A DNA stretch of 24,000 bases from Candidatus Providencia siddallii (GTDB lineage: Bacteria; Pseudomonadota; Gammaproteobacteria; Enterobacterales; Enterobacteriaceae), in the NCBI RefSeq assembly GCF_964026685.1, contig NZ_OZ034688.1:696442-720441 (forward strand), given 5' to 3'. The stretch's first letter is position 1, and every line of letters begins with the position of its first letter. The translations under genes were made by a program, and so were the position numbers. The notes under the pieces are model-generated. The model did not search any database, had not been told where the DNA came from, and saw only the letters and a list, made by a program, of their open reading frames with translations. Shown here piece by piece: positions 3,669-24,000 of the stretch.

Positions 3669-5207
3669 TTATTTTATATTAAGTTTTATAAAACTTAAAA
3701 ATCTAAAACCTAATATAAACAATGTAATAAAATAACTTATTCCACCAATAAAAATTACTAAAAATAAATAAAACATTCTTATTAACATACCTTTTTCATA
3801 TATAAAAGGTATACAATCTATCATAATAGATAAAACAGATCCCATAACAAATAAAGCTATTAATAATTTTAAAAAAAATATTTTCCATCCAAATAAAGGT
3901 TTATATATTTTTTGTTTTAATAATTGCCAATACAAAAGACCAGCATTAAAACATGCTGCTACACCTGTAGAAAGAGCAAGGCCAACATGTTGTAATTTTA
4001 TAACAAATATTAAATTCATCAATTGAGTTAAAATTAATGTAAAAATAGCTATTTTTACAGGAGTAACTGTATCCTGCCTAGAATAAAAACCAGGAGCTAA
4101 TATTTTAACTAAAATAATTCCTGTTAATCCTATACAATATGCAATTAAAGCATATTGCGTCATTAATGAATCATAAGCAGTAAAATTACTATATTGAAAT
4201 AATGATATAATTAATATTTTAGATAAAATAGCTAAACCTAATGCGCACGGCAAAGTTAATAATAAACATAAACGCAAACTCCAATCTATTAATTGATGAT
4301 ATTCAATTTTATTATTATTAATAAAACTTTTAGTTAATAAAGGTAATAAAATAGTACTAATCGCAACACCTAAAATACCTGAAGGTAATTCCATTAATCT
4401 ATCTGCATAATACATCCATGAAATTGAACCAGGTTGTAAAAATGAAGCAAATATTGTATTTATAATTAATGAAATTTGCGCAACAGATACCCCAATAATA
4501 GCTGGCCACATCATTTTTATAACCCTAAAAACACCTTGATTTTTAAATGAAAAACGTGGTAAAACTAACATACCAATTTTTTTAAGATAAGGTAATTGAT
4601 ATAAAAATTGTAATAAACCTCCAAATAATACTGACCATCCCAACGCTATAATTGGTGGATTAAAAAATGATGTTGCAAAAATAGAAAATACAATCATACA
4701 AATATTTAATAATGTTGGGGTAAAAGCTGGCACTAAAAAACGATTCCAAATATTAAGAATTGCACCAACAAGAGCACTTAACGAAATAAAAAAAATATAA
4801 GGAAATGTAATACGTAATAATTTTATTGTTAATTCATATTTATTTAAATATTTACTAATACCTGGCGCTGCAAGATAAATTATTCAAGGAGCACTAATAA
4901 ATCCAATAAAAGTTACAATTGAAAGAACTAAAGTTAACATTCCAGCAATATAAGAAATAAAAATACGAGTAGCTTCCTTTCCTTTTTTATTTTTATATTC
5001 AGTAAGTATTGGGATAAATGCTTGAGAAAAAGCCCCTTCAGCAAAAATTCTACGTAATAAATTAGGAAGTTTGAATGCTATAAAAAAAGCATCCGCTGCC
5101 TCCCCAGCACCAAATATTCTAGCAATTATAGCATCACGAATAAATCCAAAAATTCTAGACATTATCGTCATAAAACTAATTTTTGTTAATATTTTAAATA
5201 AATTCAT
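3669..5207 (-). CDS. murJ: Lipid II flippase MurJ (MviN), 512 aa if the single in-frame TGA at 4884-4886 is read as Trp
   Basis: ORF-track fragments 4884..5207 and 3669..4733 are in the same frame, and the stretch between them has no other stop. My translation across the junction is ...[68 protein letters not shown]... The E. coli MurJ sequence from memory is ...MLAAPWVIMVTAPGF...[39 protein letters not shown]. The N-terminus [35 protein letters not shown] also matches. Length is 512 aa versus 511 in E. coli. TAA stop. Confidence 0.9.
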
Positions 5208-6192: not shown

Positions 6193-7101
<909 letters not shown>

Positions 7102-7334: not shown

Positions 7335-8165
7335 TTATATATATTGAGCTAATGAAACTCTATCGCATTTACTATAATCAACACATGTTTTAATATTACT
7401 ATATCCATAAAACTTAAATAAATTACGTACAGACAAACCTTGCTTATAACCATGTTCAAGAATTACCCATCCATATTTTTTTAAATATTTTTTAGATTGT
7501 TTAATAATATAAGCTAAATTTGACATACCATTATCATATGCTACTAATGCAATAATAGGTTCAAATCTTAAATCACCTTTTTTTAAATGAATATCATTTA
7601 TTTTAATATAAGGCGGGTTACTAACGATCATATCAAATCGCTGATATAACAAAGAAGAAAACCAATTACTTTTTAAAAAACATACATTAAATATATTTAA
7701 TCTAAATTGATTCTTTTTCGCTAAATTAATTATTTCATAATTAATATCAACACCAATTATTAAACATTTTGGCAATTCAAAAGCAATTGATAAAGCTATA
7801 ATACCTGTCCCAGTTCCTAAATCTAATATTTTATAACGTTTATTACTTAATCTAATTAAAGCTTGTTCAACTAAACATTCAGTATCCGAACGAGGTATAA
7901 GTGTAACCGGTGACACATAAAATGATAAAGACCAAAATTCATATTCTCCAATAATATAAGCAATTGGTTCTCCCTTTTCTCTTCTTTGTAAGAATAACTC
8001 AAGAGTTTTATATTCATTTATTGTCAATTTTATTTCATTAAAAGCAAAAATATAAGCATAATTATAATTAGTTACATATTTCAAAAGAATTTCAACATCT
8101 TTTATTGCAGTATTACTAAAACTTAACCTTATTGTTGCTTGTTTTATCCAATCTATACATTTCAT
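7335..8165 (-). CDS. prmC: Release factor glutamine N5-methyltransferase PrmC (HemK)
   Basis: 276-aa ORF with the SAM-binding motif LDLGTGTGIIALS and the catalytic NPPY motif (VSNPPYIKI). It lies immediately downstream of prfA, as in E. coli. Its ATG overlaps the prfA TAA by 1 nt (TAATG at 8167-8163). TAA stop. Confidence 0.93.
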   Translation of the reverse strand: MKCIDWIKQATIRLSFSNTAIKDVEILLKYVTNYNYAYIFAFNEIKLTINEYKTLELFLQRREKGEPIAYIIGEYEFWSLSFYVSPVTLIPRSDTECLVEQALIRLSNKRYKILDLGTGTGIIALSIAFELPKCLIIGVDINYEIINLAKKNQFRLNIFNVCFLKSNWFSSLLYQRFDMIVSNPPYIKINDIHLKKGDLRFEPIIALVAYDNGMSNLAYIIKQSKKYLKKYGWVILEHGYKQGLSVRNLFKFYGYSNIKTCVDYSKCDRVSLAQYI

Positions 8166-9244
8166 TAATTTTCTAACAATTCCATTAATTTATCTGTTTG
8201 ATATTCATCAATGATAGGACTAATTAATAAATCTAATTTTCCAGACATAATCTCATTTAAAGAATATAATGTTAAATTAATACGATGATCAGTAATTCGC
8301 CCTTGATGAAAATTATACGTACGAATACGATCTGAACGCGAACCTGATCCTAATAAATTACGCCGTTCAGAATCTTTAATTAATTGTCTTTTATCTTTTT
8401 CTGCTTGATAAATACGTGCAGCTAATACAGACATAGCTTTAGATTTGTTTTTATGTTGAGAGCGTTCATCTTGACATTCAACAACAATACCACTTGGCAT
8501 ATGTGTAATACGTATCGCAGAATCTGTAGTATTAACATGTTGACCACCTGCTCCAGATGATCTAAACGTATCTATACGTAAATCAGATAAATTAATTTTT
8601 GGAGACTCTATTTCTGATAGCTCAGGTAAAATTGCCACAGTACATGTAGAAGTATGAATTCTACCTTGAGATTCAGTTTCCGGAACTCGTTGAACTCTAT
8701 GTCCACCTGATTCAAATTTTAATTTACCATAAACATTATCTCCTAAAATTTTTATTATAACTTCCTTAAAACCACCATGTTCTCCATGTTGAAAACTCAT
8801 TAATTCAATTTTCCAATTTTTGTTTTCAGCAAAACGAGTATACATACGAAATAAATCACCAGCAAAAATAGCAGCTTCAGATCCTCCTGAACAAGCTCTG
8901 ATTTCTAAAAAACAATTGTTTTCATCATTTATATCATTTGACGTTAAAAATAACTTAAGTTGTTTTTCGATATTTTTATTTTTTATTTTTAATTCTATTA
9001 ATTCTTCTTGTGCAATTGTTTTTAATTCAAAATCATTTAACATTGTTTCTACTACTTTTATGTCTTCCTGTAAACTATTCCACCTCTTAATATATCTTAT
9101 TATATTAGATATTTTAGAATACTCCATTGATAATTCACGAAAACGATATTGATCTGATATAATATTAGTATCAATAAGTTTTTTTTCAATTATATTATAT
9201 CGTTCTTGAAGCACTTTTAATTTTTCTTTTATAGAAAATTTCAT
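8165..9244 (-). CDS. prfA: Peptide chain release factor 1 (RF1, reads UAA/UAG)
   Basis: 359-aa ORF colinear with E. coli RF1. The GGQ motif is present ([21 protein letters not shown]). The RF1-type PxT recognition tripeptide occurs in [16 protein letters not shown]; E. coli has PAT. There is no RF2-type SPF motif and no RF2-style frameshift site. TAA stop. Confidence 0.96.
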
Positions 9245-12431: not shown

Positions 12432-13295
12432 TTATATTATATTAGTTATTTTAGAACGAAACTCATGTAATGATGACTTATTTATTCCTTTTACTAAAAA
12501 ACTTTTTATTCATGTTGGAAGATGATTTAATAAATTTAAAGCATCAGAACGTGTTTTAAATTCAGAAAAAATACAAGAACCTGTTCCTGTTAATCTAAAA
12601 GTTGCATATTTTAATAACCAAGAAATAAGTTTATCAATTTTATAAAAACGTTTTCTTACAATATTTTCACAATCATTTGTATAAGGATTAATTAATAACG
12701 TAGATAATTGTTGTTTTGGAGAATCTCTATCTAATAAAGGATCTAAAAAAATTTCTTTAGTTGATATTTTTATTTTATTATTAATAATTAAATACCAATT
12801 TTCTTTTAAAAAAACAGGAGTTAAAACATCACCTATTCCTTCAGCAAACGAAGACTTACCTTTTACAAAAAAAGGTATATCAGCTCCAATAGTTTTACCT
12901 AATTCTGCCAAAACATCATCAGAAACTTTTGTAGACCAATGTTCATTAAGAGCTATTAATGTTGTAGCAGCATTTGAAGAACCACCACCTAATCCTCCAC
13001 CAATTGGCAATCTTTTTTCACAACTTATATCTGCACCTAATGCCTTAGTATATTTTAAAACATTATGACAATAATTCTGTAATAATTTTGCTGCACATAA
13101 AATTATATTATTTTTTACTCCAGGTATTTTATTAAGTATATTAATTTTATTATCTAATCTAGTAGATATAGTTATTTTATCACCATAATTAAAAAAATGA
13201 ATTAAAGTTTGTAATTCATGATAACCATCTTTTCTATAGCCATTTATATATAAAAATAAATTTAATTTGCCAGGAGATGGCCATGTCAGAATCAT
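12432..13295 (-). CDS. ispE: 4-diphosphocytidyl-2-C-methyl-D-erythritol kinase, 287 aa if the in-frame TGA at 12510-12512 is read as Trp
   Basis: The GHMP-kinase motif PIGGGLGGGSSNAATTL is present. The N-terminus MILTWPSPGKLNLFLYI matches E. coli MRTQWPSPAKLNLFLYI, so I prefer the ATG at 13295 over the track's TTG at 13310. After the track's end (...LNHLPT-TGA) the same frame continues IKSFLVKGINKSSLHEFRSKITNII-TAA. This parallels the E. coli C-terminus ...PEWLNGFVAKG.NLSPLH... (from memory). Confidence 0.9.
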
Positions 13296-13921
13296 TTTTT
13301 TAATACCCAATCATCTATTTTAAATTTTATAAAATTATTACCTTGACGTAATTCAAAAACACTTGGTAAATATGGAATTTTTATAATATTATATTTTATA
13401 TAATTTATTTCTATTTGTTTATTATTTTTTTTAAATCTCATAGTTTTTAACAAATTATTTTCATTAAAAATAAAATCAATTGAACTACCAGGTAAACCTA
13501 TTAACCATAAAACAAATTCATTAAACGGTATACTTATTCCTATTAACTTAATTAACATATAATCTACATCATCACCAACGTAAACTCCTTTGTTTTTTAT
13601 ATTTAAAAATGAAAAATTATCTTCAAATTTAAATTCTATTTCAACATTACCAATTGGATTCATTAAAAATAATTGATATTTTTCAGGATAAAATTGTCGT
13701 TGAAAAAAAAATTTAGAATATATTTTATTTTTATCATTTGAATATATTAAAGACCCACGAACTTGATAATTATGCAACTTTAATAAATTTTGTTTATGAA
13801 TATCCCATTTTATATTTTTTTTATAAAAAACATTTTTATTAAAAACTGATGTACAACTTAATAGTAATAAACAAATAATTTTTAAAAAAATAAATTTATT
13901 ACTAATAATAGTAGATATCAT
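13262..13921 (-). CDS. lolB: Outer-membrane lipoprotein LolB. Homology ends at the TGA at 13292-13294 (209 aa); the coordinates shown extend to the next TAA, assuming UGA is read through
   Basis: The N-terminal signal peptide has a lipobox (LLLLSC, Cys23). The C-terminus ...KFKIDDWVLKK parallels E. coli ...KLKMDNWIVK. The gene sits directly upstream of ispE-prs, as in E. coli. Its terminal TGA overlaps the ispE ATG (ATGA). With read-through the tail is WFWHGHLLAN, which contains a second TGA, before the TAA at 13262-13264. Confidence 0.85.
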
Positions 13922-14664
13922 ATATTTTATATATTAAATATTTGATAATACATAGTTAAACATTTCATTGTTGAAATAAAATAATTTTATTTACAAAATA
14001 ATACTATTAATAAAAATAAAATACATAATTTTTATAACATAATGTAAATAATTATAAAAGTTATTATTTTATTTTCAAATAAATGTAATTATATATAAAG
14101 AATATTATGTAATCAATTAATTTAATTAATAAAAAATATTTTATCTTAAATTAAAATTAAAATTAATATTAATTTTAATTTATATATGATATACATATTA
14201 AAATACATAAAAAATTACATTTTTTTATATACTAATTTAAAAATAACGTATTAAATAATAATATATAATACAAAAATATTTTTTTTTAAAAAATTAATAA
14301 AAAAACATTAACTAATTATATTTAACTAAAATTATTTTAAAAAATTAATTTTAAAATTTCAAATAAATGTAAAAGTATGTTTTATTAACTATAAAACATT
14401 ATATTTTATATAAAAATATAAATATAATTATATTTAAAATATTAAGTTCTATAAAAAAATAAATAAATTTATCTTAAATTTATACTATATATATTATAAA
14501 AATTAATTTTTATATAAAATATTATATTTATCTTATAAAATCATATATTTATATCAAAAAATATAAAACAAATGATATTAAATTAATAAAAATATTATTA
14601 ACTTAAAAAATAAATAAATTATATTTTTATAATAAATTTAATTTTTTTATAAACATTAAATTTA

Positions 14665-15864
14665 CTATAATAAATTATTTACTGCAAATTGTTTTTTTAT
14701 AATCACATCAACATTATAATCAATATTTTCAAAACCAAATCCAAATAATTGCAAAAATTCTTTTTTATAACCTATATAATCAGTAAATTCACCAAAATTA
14801 TCATTACTTATTTTATTCCAAATATCACGACAACTATTTTGTACATCATCGCGTAATTCTAAATCATCTAAACGCAATCGATTTTTATTATCAGTTATTA
14901 ATAATTTATTACTATATAATTTAGTTGAAAACAAACGTTGTATTTGTTCAATACAACCTTCATTAATATATTTTTCTTTCATAATTTTAAGAATAATAGA
15001 CATGTATAAAGGCATTACAGGAATAGCTGACGAAGCTTGCGTAACAACTGATTTTAACACAACTATATATGCAGAACCTTTTTTTGATTTTAATTTTATA
15101 TCAATAACATTTGCTGCTCGTTCTAAATCTTTTTTAGCTTTTCCTATTGTACCATGCAAATAAATAGGCCATGTAATTTCACTTCCTATATAAGAATAAG
15201 CAATTGTTTTAACATTATTTGATAATAAATTTGCATTATTTAAAACATCTATCCATAACTCCCAATCTTCACCACCCATAACACTAATAGTATCAACAAT
15301 TTCTTGTTTATTAGCTGGTTTTATATCAATTTTAAATAACATATTTTTATTAGTATCTAAAGCAATTGTTTTATAAGATTTACCAATTGGTTTCAAAGTT
15401 GATCGAACAATTTTACCAGTTTTAGGAATTTTACGTTGTGATGATGCTATTGAATAAACTATTAAATCTAATTTAATTGACTCCTTTTTACATAAATCAA
15501 TAACACTTTTTTTACATTCATCAGAAAAAGCATCCCCATTGATATTTTTTACATATAATCCTTCTTTTTTAGCAGCATGACTAAAACTAGCTGAATTATA
15601 CCAACCAGCAGAAGCTGTTTTATTCATACCTCCTTGTTTTTCAAAAAAAACACCTATCGTATTAGTTTTAGCACCAAACGCTAAACTAATACGAGAAGAA
15701 AGACCATAACCAGTTGATGATCCAATTATTAATGCATTCTTAGGGCCGTCTTTAAATTCACCGCAAGATTTTACATAAGAAATTTGATTAAGTACGTTAA
15801 CTTCACATCCAATAGGATGCGAAGTTGTACAAATATATCCACGAATTTTAGGTTTTATAATCAT
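14665..15864 (-). CDS. fabV: Enoyl-[acyl-carrier-protein] reductase, FabV type (trans-2-enoyl-CoA reductase family)
   Basis: From the ATG at 15864 the product starts MIIKPKIRGYICTTSHPIGCE, the canonical FabV N-terminus; the track's earlier start at 15879 is a TTG. Other matching segments are the GSSTGYGLSSRI nucleotide-binding motif, YSYIGSEITWPIY..GTIGKAKKDLE (Tyr...Lys catalytic region), VLKSVVTQASSAIPVMPLY and NRLRLDD.ELRDD. About 399 aa. TAG stop. Confidence 0.9.
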   Translation of the reverse strand: MIIKPKIRGYICTTSHPIGCEVNVLNQISYVKSCGEFKDGPKNALIIGSSTGYGLSSRISLAFGAKTNTIGVFFEKQGGMNKTASAGWYNSASFSHAAKKEGLYVKNINGDAFSDECKKSVIDLCKKESIKLDLIVYSIASSQRKIPKTGKIVRSTLKPIGKSYKTIALDTNKNMLFKIDIKPANKQEIVDTISVMGGEDWELWIDVLNNANLLSNNVKTIAYSYIGSEITWPIYLHGTIGKAKKDLERAANVIDIKLKSKKGSAYIVVLKSVVTQASSAIPVMPLYMSIILKIMKEKYINEGCIEQIQRLFSTKLYSNKLLITDNKNRLRLDDLELRDDVQNSCRDIWNKISNDNFGEFTDYIGYKKEFLQLFGFGFENIDYNVDVIIKKQFAVNNLL

Positions 15865-16259
15865 ATTTTTATTAATCAATGTAATTTAAAATTAAAATAT
15901 TTTTATAATTATTTTAATATTTTTTAATAATTTTATATCTATATGTATAAAATTATCAATAAACAAATTATTAATTATCATTTTATTTTCTATAAAATTA
16001 ATTTTAAAAAATTATTTATTTGTTCTAACAAAAATAATATAAATTTACTAAATTAATAAAAAATATACAAAATTAAAATTATAAAAACTTTTTAAAATTT
16101 TTAATAATTATGTTTTAATAAAATTATTTTAATATTAAAATATATAAAATATTACTATTTATCAAAAAAATAATATTTTTTTTAAATTTTAAAAAAAATA
16201 CTCTTTATAATTACAATATAAATAACTTTTTCTTTGCTTTAATATTAATTATAATCTAT

Positions 16260-16416: not shown

Positions 16417-16524
16417 ATAAAACAAATTTAAAATTATTTTACTATATTATAAGAAATACATATTAAGTCAATAAATTTAATTTAAAAAATAATATTATTT
16501 ATAAATTTTAAATAATTCTATTAT

Positions 16525-17064: not shown

Positions 17065-17828
17065 ATAACTTTCAAGATATTAAATAATAATTTTCAATAG
17101 CATATTTATTTTTATATATTTTAAAATACATAAAAACAAATATACTATTGAAAATAAATATACTAATAAATAGTACACATATTATTTACTAAATAACAAA
17201 TAAAATAAAATAATTATTAATAACGAATATATTTATATTAAATATTTATAACTATAAAATCATAACCTTTTATATTTTTTTATAAATAAACTTAAATTTA
17301 TTTATTTTATAAAAAATAAAATCTTATATTTTTATAAATACATATAATAAAATTTACAAAATTATATATTTAATATACAAAACAAAATTAATTTTAAAAA
17401 AATTTTATGTAATTACTTTTTATTAAAAATCAATTGTTTTAAAATATATAAAATATTTCATATAAAAAAATATTAAATTATTTTTTAAAAAAATAATTCA
17501 TAAAATATATTAAAAAACTAATATTTTAAAAAAATAACAAATTCAATTTTATTTATAAATAAAATTGATATTTATATTATGTAATATAAACAATAATTAT
17601 TAATATATTAAAATAAATTAAATAATAAACATAAATAATATTTTATCATATAGATATATATTTTAAAAAAAAATTAAAAAATAAACAAAAATAAATACAT
17701 TAAATAGTAAATCTATTATATTTTTACTTCATATAAAATATATATAATAATAAAATTATTAAAATATTTTTATTCAATATACAATATTTAATTATTTATT
17801 TTTTAAAAAAATAATTTTTTTATTTTTT

Positions 17829-20800
17829 TTATAAATCATTTGTTTTATAAACAAATTCACTATAATTTTTTTCATTTTTAAAAGAAAAATCAAATATATT
17901 AACTTTTGCTTGAAATGGTGGAAAAGGTAAATCAATATTTTGCTTTTTAAAAAAAATTAATATATTTTGATGTATTTCATGTCTAGCTGGCAAACGATGT
18001 CCAATTTCAGAAACATAAACACGCAACTCAAAAATTTGAATACCTTGTTGTAAATCAACTAAATAAACTTCAGATATTGGATTTTTTAAAACCAAAGTAC
18101 AATGTTCTACTGCTTGCAAAATTGTATTTGTTACTAATTTACTATTTACATGTATAGGAGCGCACACAATCATAACAATGCGAGTTATTGTATCAGATAA
18201 AGACCAATTTATAAATTGTTCAGTAATAAAAGCTTTATTTGGTACTATAATTTCTTTTTTATCCCAATCTGTTAATATAGTAGCACGTGTTTTAATTTTT
18301 GTAACGTTTCCAGTTAAATTACGAATAGTTATTGTATCATTAATTCGAATAGGTTTTTCAAATAAAATTATTAATCCTGAAATAATATTAACAAAAATTT
18401 CTTGCAAACCAAAACCTAATCCAACACCCATAGCAGCTACAAGCCATTGTAATTTTGACCAATCAATACCTAATATTGAAAAAGCAATAATAATACCAAT
18501 AATAGTAATTGTATATTTAGTTAAAGTACTAATAGCATATCCAGTACCAGGTGTTAAATCTAAATGTTGTAATATTGCTAATTCAAGTAAAGCAGGAAGA
18601 TTACGAACTAGTTGAGTGGTAATAATAATAACTAATATAACAATAAATATAGATTTTATATTAATTGTTTTAATAGTATCAACCCCATTAACCATAGAAG
18701 TTACATCCCATAAATGAATATTTTCAAGAAATGCAAATGCAATATGTAATTCAGACCATAACAAAATTAGAGAGACCAAAGCAATCATAGTTAAAATAGA
18801 ACGAACTAAACCAAGCGATTGAATACTAATCACATCTAAATCAATTAATTGTTCTTCTATATCAACACTTCCTTCGTTACTATTTACTAACTGATTGTCA
18901 TCCTCATATTTAGCACGCATAGCTAAAATCTCTGCTCTACGTTGTTTAGCTCTATCAAAAGCTAATTTTCGTCGTTGTATTAACATCCAGCGACGAATTG
19001 TATAATATATAATTAAAATAACAAACCAAATAACAAGTGAAGTTTCTAAACGTATTAAAAGTATTTGAGAAGTTGATAAATAACCTAATATAGAAAAAAA
19101 TAAAGCAACTATAGGAGACAATAAAATCACCAACCATAATATATGATTAATAATATTTTCTTTTGATCCATTTTTATCAATATATAATGGAATTTGTAAA
19201 CTATATAAATGTTTTTTAATTACACTTAATGCAATACATAATATTATAAAACAAAAACGACCAATACCAGGGACAAACTCTCTATTACCATAATGTTCAA
19301 AAGTAATAATTAACATAATTAATGGTACAACAACAAAAATAGCAGTTCGATAATATCTCATTGCACGTTTAACATAATTTTTATCCCATCCAAAATGAGC
19401 AATAAATAAACCAGTTTGACGAGAAAATATTTCACTAATCATAAACAACCATAATAATGGAGTTGTTGAACTAACACCATAACCTATAGCTGCTACCATA
19501 GAATATTGCCAAGAATTTTTTAAACCATAACCAATAGCTGACCACATTATAGGTAATGGTAAAGCAACAATAATAGACCAAAAAATAATACGAATAGTCA
19601 AATAAAAATGATCTTGTGTAACTTTACCAATTCGTAAACTAGAACGATTAAGAAAAGATTGATAATGTTTTCTAGTATTAATACTAAAAATAACTAAAAA
19701 AATAGAACCTAATAAACACAAAAATGTATCTTGAGTTGTTAACATTAATTTAAAAGATTTAGCAACTTGAGATAATGTATTTAACGATAATAATTTAATA
19801 ATATCAGAAGCTAAAATCATAAGATATTTAACATTAATAGGAGCAACATCTGCAATCCAAAAAAGATAACGATTTGATGCATCTTTAACATCTTTTAATA
19901 CATCTGTTAATTGATTAGTAGCAACGTTTAATTTTGTTAACTCAAGAATCTCTGTATCTAAATCAGAAATTATGGATAATAATAATTCTTTACGTGTTTT
20001 TATTAATAATAAATACATCTGATTTTGTTCTGTTGTTAACTTATTTATTTTTTTTTGTTTTGAAAAATTTAAATTATTTAAATGTTCCAAAATATCTTTA
20101 TAATTCAAGCGTTGAACACGTAAATATGCTATTTTATGATCTAATTGTTGACTTTTAGGAATATCAGGTAATCTTGAAAGTTGCGTTCTTAATACTTCCC
20201 CTAATATGCTAGAACTACTAATCCATTGTGATTGCTCATTAATAGTAGCTAAAGCTTGACGAGCTTCTCCAATGCTTATAGAAATTTTTAATTGTGTTGA
20301 TGTAATTGAATTCATTCTATTAGCTTGTTTTGTTAATTCTTGTGATATTCTATGATTTATATTAAGTTGTTCTTTTAAAAAAGGGATTAATTCACCTTGT
20401 TTAGCTAACATTCTAGTATATTTTAAAGCTAAAAAAGCTTTTTGTTGTCTTTTGGTATTTTGAAAATCACGTAAATTTTGTAATTCAAGTTCAAAAAGAT
20501 GATATTTTTTTTTATATAATTCTAATTTAATACGAGAAATTTCTTGACGATTATTAGCAGATAATTGTTCAAGTTCTAATTCATTTACTATAGATTTTCG
20601 CGCATTAACTTCTGATTGACATAAAATGTATTTTGCTTCTGATAATTTTGTTGAAGATCTTTCTATAAAATTAAAATGTTTTATAGCTTCATTAAGTAAA
20701 CGTCTTGCATCAGATATTTTTTGAGGTAAAATATTTAACGATTCAGTAATTTCTATAATTTTATCCTGTTCTTGTTGAATTAAATGACCTTGATCAAGTA

Positions 20801-21158
20801 TTTGACTACTTAATTGAACAATACGTTGTTCTAACTCATTTAAATTAACATCAATTTTTATAGAATTTATTTGATTATTTTCATTTAAAAAATTTTTTTT
20901 TATCTCTTTTATTATTTTAGGATAATTATTTATTATTTTTTGATAATATTTACATCTTGAATTTGAATTATTAAATTCAGAAATCCATTTTAATGTTGAC
21001 TCTAATACTTTTATTATTTCAATATCTTTTGAATTTTTATTTGATTCTAATTTTCTAAGTTCTTGTTTTATTTGTAATTCATCTTCAATTATATTTTGTA
21101 TTGCAAATAACGAAGAATTAATAAACAAGCTAAATAAAAAACCAACAATTAAACGCAC
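17829..21158 (-). CDS. mscM: Large MscS-family mechanosensitive channel (MscM/YjeP-like; MscK paralogue family)
   Basis: 1109-aa ORF with a GTG start. The MRLIVGFLFSLFINSSLFA signal-like N-terminus is followed by a long coiled-coil-like periplasmic region and multiple TM helices. The C-terminal MscS core reads AAMGVGLGFGLQEIFVNIISGLIILFEKPIRINDTITI...TDWDKKEIIVPNKAFITEQFINWS. Its position immediately downstream of psd (36-nt gap) matches E. coli psd-mscM. Confidence 0.88.
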   Translation of the reverse strand: MRLIVGFLFSLFINSSLFAIQNIIEDELQIKQELRKLESNKNSKDIEIIKVLESTLKWISEFNNSNSRCKYYQKIINNYPKIIKEIKKNFLNENNQINSIKIDVNLNELEQRIVQLSSQILDQGHLIQQEQDKIIEITESLNILPQKISDARRLLNEAIKHFNFIERSSTKLSEAKYILCQSEVNARKSIVNELELEQLSANNRQEISRIKLELYKKKYHLFELELQNLRDFQNTKRQQKAFLALKYTRMLAKQGELIPFLKEQLNINHRISQELTKQANRMNSITSTQLKISISIGEARQALATINEQSQWISSSSILGEVLRTQLSRLPDIPKSQQLDHKIAYLRVQRLNYKDILEHLNNLNFSKQKKINKLTTEQNQMYLLLIKTRKELLLSIISDLDTEILELTKLNVATNQLTDVLKDVKDASNRYLFWIADVAPINVKYLMILASDIIKLLSLNTLSQVAKSFKLMLTTQDTFLCLLGSIFLVIFSINTRKHYQSFLNRSSLRIGKVTQDHFYLTIRIIFWSIIVALPLPIMWSAIGYGLKNSWQYSMVAAIGYGVSSTTPLLWLFMISEIFSRQTGLFIAHFGWDKNYVKRAMRYYRTAIFVVVPLIMLIITFEHYGNREFVPGIGRFCFIILCIALSVIKKHLYSLQIPLYIDKNGSKENIINHILWLVILLSPIVALFFSILGYLSTSQILLIRLETSLVIWFVILIIYYTIRRWMLIQRRKLAFDRAKQRRAEILAMRAKYEDDNQLVNSNEGSVDIEEQLIDLDVISIQSLGLVRSILTMIALVSLILLWSELHIAFAFLENIHLWDVTSMVNGVDTIKTINIKSIFIVILVIIITTQLVRNLPALLELAILQHLDLTPGTGYAISTLTKYTITIIGIIIAFSILGIDWSKLQWLVAAMGVGLGFGLQEIFVNIISGLIILFEKPIRINDTITIRNLTGNVTKIKTRATILTDWDKKEIIVPNKAFITEQFINWSLSDTITRIVMIVCAPIHVNSKLVTNTILQAVEHCTLVLKNPISEVYLVDLQQGIQIFELRVYVSEIGHRLPARHEIHQNILIFFKKQNIDLPFPPFQAKVNIFDFSFKNEKNYSEFVYKTNDL

Positions 21159-22082: not shown

Positions 22083-22366
22083 GTATTTTCCTTTTTTTTT
22101 ACAAAAAAATATGTTTTACTTATTTTTTACTTTTTTAATATATCTAAATAAAATTATTATATTTTATCAATTAAAAACTTTAAAAATTAAAATCAATAAT
22201 TTTTAAAATTTTATAAAAAAATAAATTAAAATTTTAATTTTTTATAATATAAAATTATTTTTTTAAAATATTAAAATTATATATTTTATATATCTATATA
22301 AAATATTTTTAATAATATTAAAATTTCATTTATGACGTTTTTTTAAAAAACATATATATATTTATT

Positions 22367-22906
22367 ATGAAAAAAAACAATAATTTAATTTGGATTGATC
22401 TTGAAATGACAGGTCTTCATCCAATTCGTAATCGTATTATTGAAATAGCAACTATTATAACTGACAAAAATATTAATATTTTAGCAAAAGGACCTGTTAT
22501 TCCAATTTATCAAACAGAAAAACAACTTAATTTAATGGACAAATGGAATATCACAACACATGTTACTCATGGTTTAATAGAACGTGTTAGAAAAAGTTCT
22601 TTTAACGAACGAGATGCTGAACTAATAACAATTAATTTTTTAAAACAATGGGTTAAAAAAGGAAGCTCTCCTATCTGTGGTAATACCATTGGGTTAGATA
22701 GACAATTTTTATTTAATTATATGCCTGAACTAGAAAACTTTTTTCATTATCGCTATATTGATGTTAGTACAATAAAAGAATTAGCTTTACGTTGAAAACC
22801 ATCGATTTTAAATAAATTTACTAAAAAAAATACACATCAAGCTTCAAACGATATTATAGAATCTATAAATGAATTATTATTTTATAAAAAATATTTTTTT
22901 AAATAA
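22367..22906 (+). CDS. orn: Oligoribonuclease, 179 aa if the in-frame TGA at 22793-22795 is read as Trp
   Basis: The track ORF ends ...[18 protein letters not shown]. The same frame continues [40 protein letters not shown]. coli Orn from memory reads ...[43 protein letters not shown]... The DEDDh motifs are WIDLEMTGL (Exo I) and H-x4-D ([11 protein letters not shown], Exo III); the latter lies after the TGA. Length is 179 aa versus 181 in E. coli. Confidence 0.9.
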
Positions 22907-23089: not shown

Positions 23090-24000
23090 TAATATATATC
23101 AAATATTTTATTTATTAATATAAAAATATTTATATTTTAAAAAAACAAAAATTAAAAATGTATTTTTAATTTAAATAATATCATTATATAAAATTATAAA
23201 TACATAAACATAAATATATATTATAAATATTTTATCTAATATTTTTATAAACGTAAAAATATAAAACATTTTTTAAAAAAAATAATATAAGAATATTATT
23301 AAAATCAATAAAATATTATATATTTATAATTTCTTAACAAAAAAAATTCATATTTAATTTTTAATTACATTTTATAAAAAAAATAATAAAAAACTAAATT
23401 AGTTAATAATAATTTAATTATTAATTAACAAAAATCTATTTTAACTGTTAAATATATAATAAAATAAAATCAAACTTTTATATAAATTAATAATTTATTA
23501 TAATTTAACATTCAGTATTATATGATATATTAATTTCGTTAATCAAATATTTCTAATAATTTTATTATTAATCTATTTAAAATAAATAATTTTAAATATT
23601 TTATTTTATCAATAAAAAAAATAACAAAGAAATATTTTAATTATACAAATTTTATTTAAAAAATAAAATACTAAAATTTTTAATTAACCAATTTATTATT
23701 TTTAATATAAATATTTATATATTTTATATAAACTAAAATATATCTTAGAAATATTAATATCACAATGATTATAACATTTTTTTTAAAATACATAAAAACT
23801 TTTAAAAACAATTAATAACTTTTTAGAATATTATTCTAATTAATAAACTAATTATTAAAACTAAAATATATTGTATCTTTTAAAGATATATATTTATTAT
23901 TAAAAATATATTAAATAAAAAATAACGAAATATTTTAACAAAACTATCTTAAAAATAAAAAACAAATATAATAAAAATATAAAATTACTAAAAATTTTAA

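Follow-up and report, generated by a model that had tools for sequence, protein, structure and literature searches.

The window analysed here is a stretch of 24,000 nucleotides from the genome of Candidatus Providencia siddallii strain PSAC, with a GC content of about 20%. It holds 16 genes with 6,090 sense codons, among them 65 TGG codons, three internal TGA codons and no internal TAA or TAG. One of these genes is murJ, which encodes the lipid II flippase. It occupies positions 3669–5207 of the minus strand and comprises 512 sense codons when TGA is counted as Trp, ending with a TAA stop at 3669–3671. The in-frame TGA is codon 108, located at 4884–4886 in the context CCT TGA ATA; the plus strand reads tca at these positions. 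Using translation table 11, murJ appears as two ORFs in the same frame, 4884–5207 (107 aa) and 3669–4733 (354 aa). Translation of the minus strand from 3669 to 5207 gave 512 codons with one internal stop and a TAA end, 404 of the codons lying past the TGA. The earliest codon at which translation could restart in frame after the TGA is a GTG at codon 159; codons 109–158 (4734–4883), which precede it, are stop-free and conserved. A sequence-only reading of this DNA had described a single in-frame TGA with 404 open codons after it, and two ORFs of one frame separated by a stop-free segment. ORF finding and translation confirmed the codon, its position and the open frame, and all coordinates and sequence strings that had been given for murJ proved correct.

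The read-through product matched the Pfam profile PF03023 in one stretch, over profile positions 1–437 of 451 (score 475.8 bits, cutoff 27.4, E = 1.6e-142). The two table-11 fragments cover only profile positions 1–79 and 130–437. Residues 1–507 of the solved MurJ structure 7waw (511 aa) aligned with residues 1–507 of the product (E = 1e-217), placing the motif APWIIY opposite APWIIY and the W opposite the TGA. Among the 120 best homologues, aligned with MAFFT, the TGA column contained W in 116 sequences, I in three and L in one, and the A-P-W-[IV]-I motif surrounding it is nearly invariant. As counted along the read-through sequence, arginines are present at positions 18, 24, 52 and 270, the last of which lies past the TGA. 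In mutagenesis studies, R18, R24, R52 and R270 have reportedly proved essential for E. coli MurJ. The PSAC protein is predicted to flip lipid II. The public annotation of PSAC murJ uses table 4 and translates through the TGA. The read-through product is 100% identical to CAL1329511.1 / WP_341764966.1, which has 512 aa and Trp at residue 108, and only one PSAC MurJ was present among the protein matches.

The closest relative used for comparison was the sister strain PSOF (GCA_001457715.1, locus L002), which is syntenic with the window over lolB-ispE-prs-pth-ychF-prfA-prmC-kdsA-murJ-argS-aspS. Codons 107–109 of murJ read CCG TGG ATT in PSOF versus CCT TGA ATA in PSAC. The two genes aligned over 512 of 512 codons without gaps, and PSOF murJ has no frameshift or stop downstream. 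Identity to PSOF MurJ was 76% upstream of the TGA, 72% over codons 109–158 and 70% downstream. The pairwise dN/dS of murJ was 0.28 overall, about 0.19 for codons 1–107 and about 0.31 for codons 109–512 (dN 0.186, dS 0.59); such a value is an average over both lineages and is compatible with a very recent inactivation. Most of the intact neighbours of murJ gave pairwise dN/dS values of 0.14–0.50.

The sequence-only reading had proposed a TGA in place of a conserved Trp within a single intact murJ of 512 codons, colinear with the E. coli MurJ of 511 aa. The proposal is supported by the alignments, by the TGG of PSOF and by the table-4 annotation. Colinearity is borne out by 7waw over residues 1–507, and the alignment runs unbroken across the TGA, with Trp in its column, for 7waw, 116 of the 120 homologues and PF03023. 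The expectation that a close relative would carry Trp in this column, with no stops or frameshifts thereafter, holds for PSOF, which has TGG and an intact gene.

The TGA of murJ is not isolated, as ispE and orn also have UGA at a conserved Trp. The ispE gene (12432–13295, minus strand; 287 codons with table 4) has TGA at 12510–12512 as codon 262, in the context ACA TGA ATA; the corresponding PSOF codon is TGG. With table 11 this TGA is an apparent stop, and 25 more codons follow it. The E. coli-type IspE sequence ...APEWLNGFVAKG aligned opposite ...LPTWIKSFLVKG of PSAC, and the structure alignment continues through ...LPTWIKSFLVKG... The 287-aa form is deposited in GenBank as CAL1329518.1, and ispE of PSLP is included in the published table of UGA read-through genes (PMC10540940). 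The oligoribonuclease gene orn (22367–22906, plus strand) has TGA at 22793–22795 as codon 143, in the context CGT TGA AAA. Its product would have 142 aa with table 11 versus 179 aa (179 codons) with table 4, and the longer form is that of CAL1329524.1. In the alignment with the Orn structure 7vh4, which reaches the C-terminus, ...ELARRWKPEIL is opposite ...ELALRWKPSIL of PSAC. The peptides spanning the UGA are SDALNLLNHLPTWIK for IspE and WKPSILNK for Orn.

A similar case was seen in the sister strain itself. The 250-aa call for znuB of PSOF (L002, about 16470–16480, minus strand) begins past a TGA that occupies a Trp position in the same frame, MIELLIPG-TGA-ITGV..., and the gene fits the published list of PSOF read-through genes (PMC10540940).

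Two further genes of the window have TGA at their ends. The kdsA gene (6220–7074, minus strand) has a terminal TGA at 6220–6222, in the context AAT TGA TTT, located exactly at the C-terminus of the PSOF protein, where PSOF has TAA TAG. Reading through this TGA would add only nine codons (WFLYLFFLF) before a TAA at 6193; the terminated form ends in ...KIDINN. KdsA has 284 aa in GenBank versus 293 aa in RefSeq, and the annotation itself is therefore undecided. The terminal TGA of lolB (13292–13921, minus strand) is located at 13292–13294 and overlaps the ATG of ispE as ATGA. It cannot turn into TAA, because the overlap means that the ispE ATG would be destroyed. A second in-frame TGA follows at 13286–13288 (TGA TTC TGA), and decoding both as Trp would add 10 codons, to 13262, so that the C-terminus would be ...KKWFWHGHLLAN instead of the ...WVLKK of the terminated form. 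Both GenBank and RefSeq give the 219-aa read-through form of LolB. PSOF lolB has the same terminal TGA, the same ATGA overlap and likewise a second TGA (TGA CAT TGA). With a protein 52% identical to that of PSOF and a pairwise dN/dS of about 0.89, lolB is also the fastest-evolving gene of the block. That kdsA and lolB end in UGA suggests that the meaning of the codon is ambiguous or context-dependent, and, as judged from the sequence, these two terminal TGAs are themselves ambiguous.

The genes for the release-factor methyltransferase, prmC (7335–8165), and release factor 1, prfA (8165–9244), are both on the minus strand, intact and free of TGA; the machinery for termination at TAA and TAG is thus retained. 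Pfam identifies PCRF/RF-1 and PrmC_N/MTS domains in their PSOF orthologues, and dN/dS for the prmC/prfA pair was 0.24 and 0.31. Four tRNAs are encoded in the window, Ser-GGA, Leu-TAA, Cys-GCA and Gly-GCC, and trnW is not among them; prfB is also located beyond the window.

The code change in PSAC was reported by Manzano-Marin, Kvist and Oceguera-Figueroa (2023, Genome Biol Evol 15:evad164; PMC10540940). The strain lives as a symbiont in the bacteriomes of the leech Haementeria acuecueyetzin and has a genome of 756 kbp and 22.0% GC. In-frame UGA codons were found at Trp positions in 125 of its 610 CDSs, mostly as UGG>UGA changes, and many of the affected genes are essential, including those for aminoacyl-tRNA ligases (PMC10540940). 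The RF2 gene prfB is kept, yet has an in-frame UGA of its own, and the anticodon of trnW is CCA, which is also that of Zinderia and Stammera (PMC10540940). At least nine genes, including kdsA, are thought still to stop at UGA, with “rather large” extensions otherwise; the authors regard PSAC as being at an early or intermediate stage of the reassignment from code 11 to code 4 (PMC10540940). By the literature, prfB loss, a feature of code 4, is thus not fully seen in PSAC (PMC10540940).

The phenomenon is therefore already known, and the TGAs of murJ, ispE and orn are instances of the 125 published UGA genes. The published report and the window concern one phenomenon in one genome and do not differ in substance. 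The kdsA extension, at nine codons, is shorter than the general description of “rather large” (PMC10540940). The main text of the paper does not mention murJ by name, and a 2024 paper on the Haementeria symbiont gives nothing further on the genetic code.

We conclude, with a probability of roughly 0.9, that UGA is read as Trp in murJ and that MurJ is made at full length; the conclusion is drawn from sequence comparison. The PSAC genome would be midway in exchanging code 11 for code 4, with UGA turning from a stop into a Trp codon. In a genome of about 20% GC, where AT mutation pressure favours such a change, a TGG>TGA transition would have arisen in murJ. It would be tolerated because ribosomes put Trp at UGA, and the product would therefore be a full-length MurJ of 512 aa. 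The ordinary tRNA-Trp(CCA) might decode UGA through a near-cognate C–A mismatch at the third codon position, in competition with a depleted RF2 and helped where A is the next base. Some UGAs, for example those closing kdsA and lolB, may still be recognised as stops by residual RF2. The TGG>TGA changes at constrained Trp sites are observations of the present analysis and the state of RF2 and of the tRNA is that given in PMC10540940; from the two we infer the decoding route. As the specific mechanism, near-cognate decoding against a weakened RF2 is slightly favoured.

The alternative that survives best is a strict code 4, in which RF2 would be non-functional, every UGA would mean Trp, and kdsA and lolB would have short C-terminal extensions. 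It is possible, and in our view rather doubtful. The extensions would be only nine (kdsA) and 10 (lolB) codons before a TAA and are probably harmless, in keeping with this alternative. Nevertheless, only three of the 68 Trp codons of the window (about 4%) are TGA despite strong AT pressure, and only 20% of PSAC genes contain UGA versus 50–70% in established code-4 symbionts (PMC10540940). In addition, prfB has been kept, not deleted, and nine genes would, according to the authors, acquire long extensions if read through (PMC10540940). The second TGA one codon past the lolB stop, found in PSAC and PSOF alike, also argues against a strict code 4.

It is very improbable that a nonsense mutation has turned murJ into a pseudogene in which the 404 downstream codons are an undecayed remnant. 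Envelope genes do get lost in reduced symbiont genomes, and table 11 splits murJ into ORFs of 107 and 354 aa. However, the 404 codons have acquired neither a frameshift nor a further stop at about 20% GC. The alignment with PSOF is ungapped, with a downstream dN/dS (about 0.31) similar to that of the intact neighbours. In addition, ispE and orn show the same TGA at Trp, and there is no TAA or TAG in the 6,090 codons. Given three random nonsense mutations, the probability that all three would be TGG>TGA is 6e-5 to 8e-4 (mutation-bias weights of 1–10). Finally, 125 such genes have been published, many of them essential (PMC10540940).

A sequencing or assembly error could have turned TGG into the TGA by one G>A difference. 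The chance of this is negligible, as the 24 kb contain three independent TGG>TGA sites, each with the change precisely at the third base of a Trp codon, and the deposited closed genome and PMC10540940 agree, with 125 genes. Equally negligible are a MurJ made as two polypeptides (1–107 and 159–512), for which a GTG for re-initiation is present in frame at codon 159, and decoding of the UGA, a Sec codon in bacteria, as selenocysteine: the omitted codons 109–158 are stop-free, 72% identical to PSOF and contain a near-invariant motif, and the murJ column is W, I or L and never C among the 120 best homologues. A search of the window with Rfam at the gathering threshold found no SECIS or other structured element, only tRNAs. 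On this evidence, we rejected all four of these alternatives: pseudogene, sequencing error, re-initiated split gene and selenocysteine.

With Trp as the meaning of UGA in murJ, ispE and orn, the base that follows the codon was compared between sense and terminal sites. An A follows all three sense UGAs (murJ, 4881–4886; ispE, 12507–12512; orn, 22793–22798), and a T follows both terminal ones (kdsA, 6217–6222; lolB, 13289–13294). After the 65 TGG codons of the window, the next base is A in 23 cases (35%), T in 23, G in 11 and C in eight. In ispE, the codon past the Trp is TTA (Leu) in PSOF versus ATA (Ile) in PSAC, so that A follows the UGA. The UGA of PSOF znuB also has A next (TGA ATC). The pattern, which agrees with the proposed decoding route, is a weak lead resting on five or six sites, and the A is in part explained by conservation of Ile or Lys as the next residue. 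In E. coli, UGA followed by U is the strongest context for RF2. It might be that the meaning of UGA in PSAC is set by the 3′ base, A leading to Trp through tRNA-Trp(CCA) and U to termination, an idea that we put forward tentatively and consider improbable at present. An effect of a 3′ A was raised in PMC10540940 for prfB only. If the idea were true, PSAC would be a bacterium with a codon of truly dual meaning resolved by context, and a new UGA-Trp codon would have a better chance of fixation with A as the next base.

Several known systems can be compared with PSAC. The code-4 Mollicutes and the insect symbionts Hodgkinia, Nasuia, Zinderia and Stammera, whose genomes are AT-biased or reduced, likewise give UGA the meaning Trp and, like PSAC, show TGG>TGA at conserved Trp positions of essential genes. 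These code-4 lineages have lost prfB and have UGA in 50–70% of their genes, whereas PSAC keeps a prfB with an internal UGA (PMC10540940, Table 2). The tRNA-Trp of Hodgkinia and Nasuia has a UCA anticodon, in contrast to CCA in PSAC (PMC10540940, Table 2).

In E. coli, wild-type tRNA-Trp(CCA) gives leaky read-through of UGA, more so when A is the next base (Engelberg-Kulka 1981, cited in PMC10540940). The route would be the same as that proposed here, a near-cognate tRNA-Trp against RF2, and the sense UGAs of the window have a 3′ A in three of three cases. Read-through in E. coli is a low-level error, and not a source of essential proteins as is proposed for PSAC. The D-arm suppressor tRNA-Trp of Hirsh reportedly also allows UGA read-through; the mutations of the PSAC tRNA-Trp might conceivably have a similar effect.

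A codon that apparently serves both for Trp and as a real terminator, as apparently in PSAC, is also found in Blastocrithidia (cited in PMC10540940) and Condylostoma. In these two organisms the machinery is eukaryotic, with eRF1 and an altered anticodon stem of tRNA-Trp, and no bacterial equivalent of a context-dependent stop/sense codon is known to have been demonstrated.

The murJ call decides whether the symbiont can still build peptidoglycan. If TGA is taken as a stop, murJ, ispE and orn are wrongly scored as broken. In practice the window needs table 4, and gene ends at TGA (kdsA, lolB) are to be treated as ambiguous. As a gammaproteobacterium that appears to be midway in UGA reassignment, with RF2 and tRNA-Trp(CCA) still there, PSAC matters for the evolution of the code.

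Some other features of the window were also recorded. A gene at 17829–21158 (minus strand) encodes a mechanosensitive channel of the MscK/KefA type (1,109 aa; Pfam MscS_porin, MscS_TM and MS_channel), and one at 14665–15879 (minus strand) a trans-2-enoyl reductase of the FabV type (Pfam PF12241, PF12242 and PF07055). Both are without TGA, the channel gene having 17 TGG codons. The spacers at 13922–14664, 17065–17828, 23090–24000 and about 22083–22366 are up to about 900 bp long and have 6–9% GC, with no ORFs or RNA matches. They are long for a compact genome of 756 kb, and may be what is left of genes that were lost and have eroded completely.
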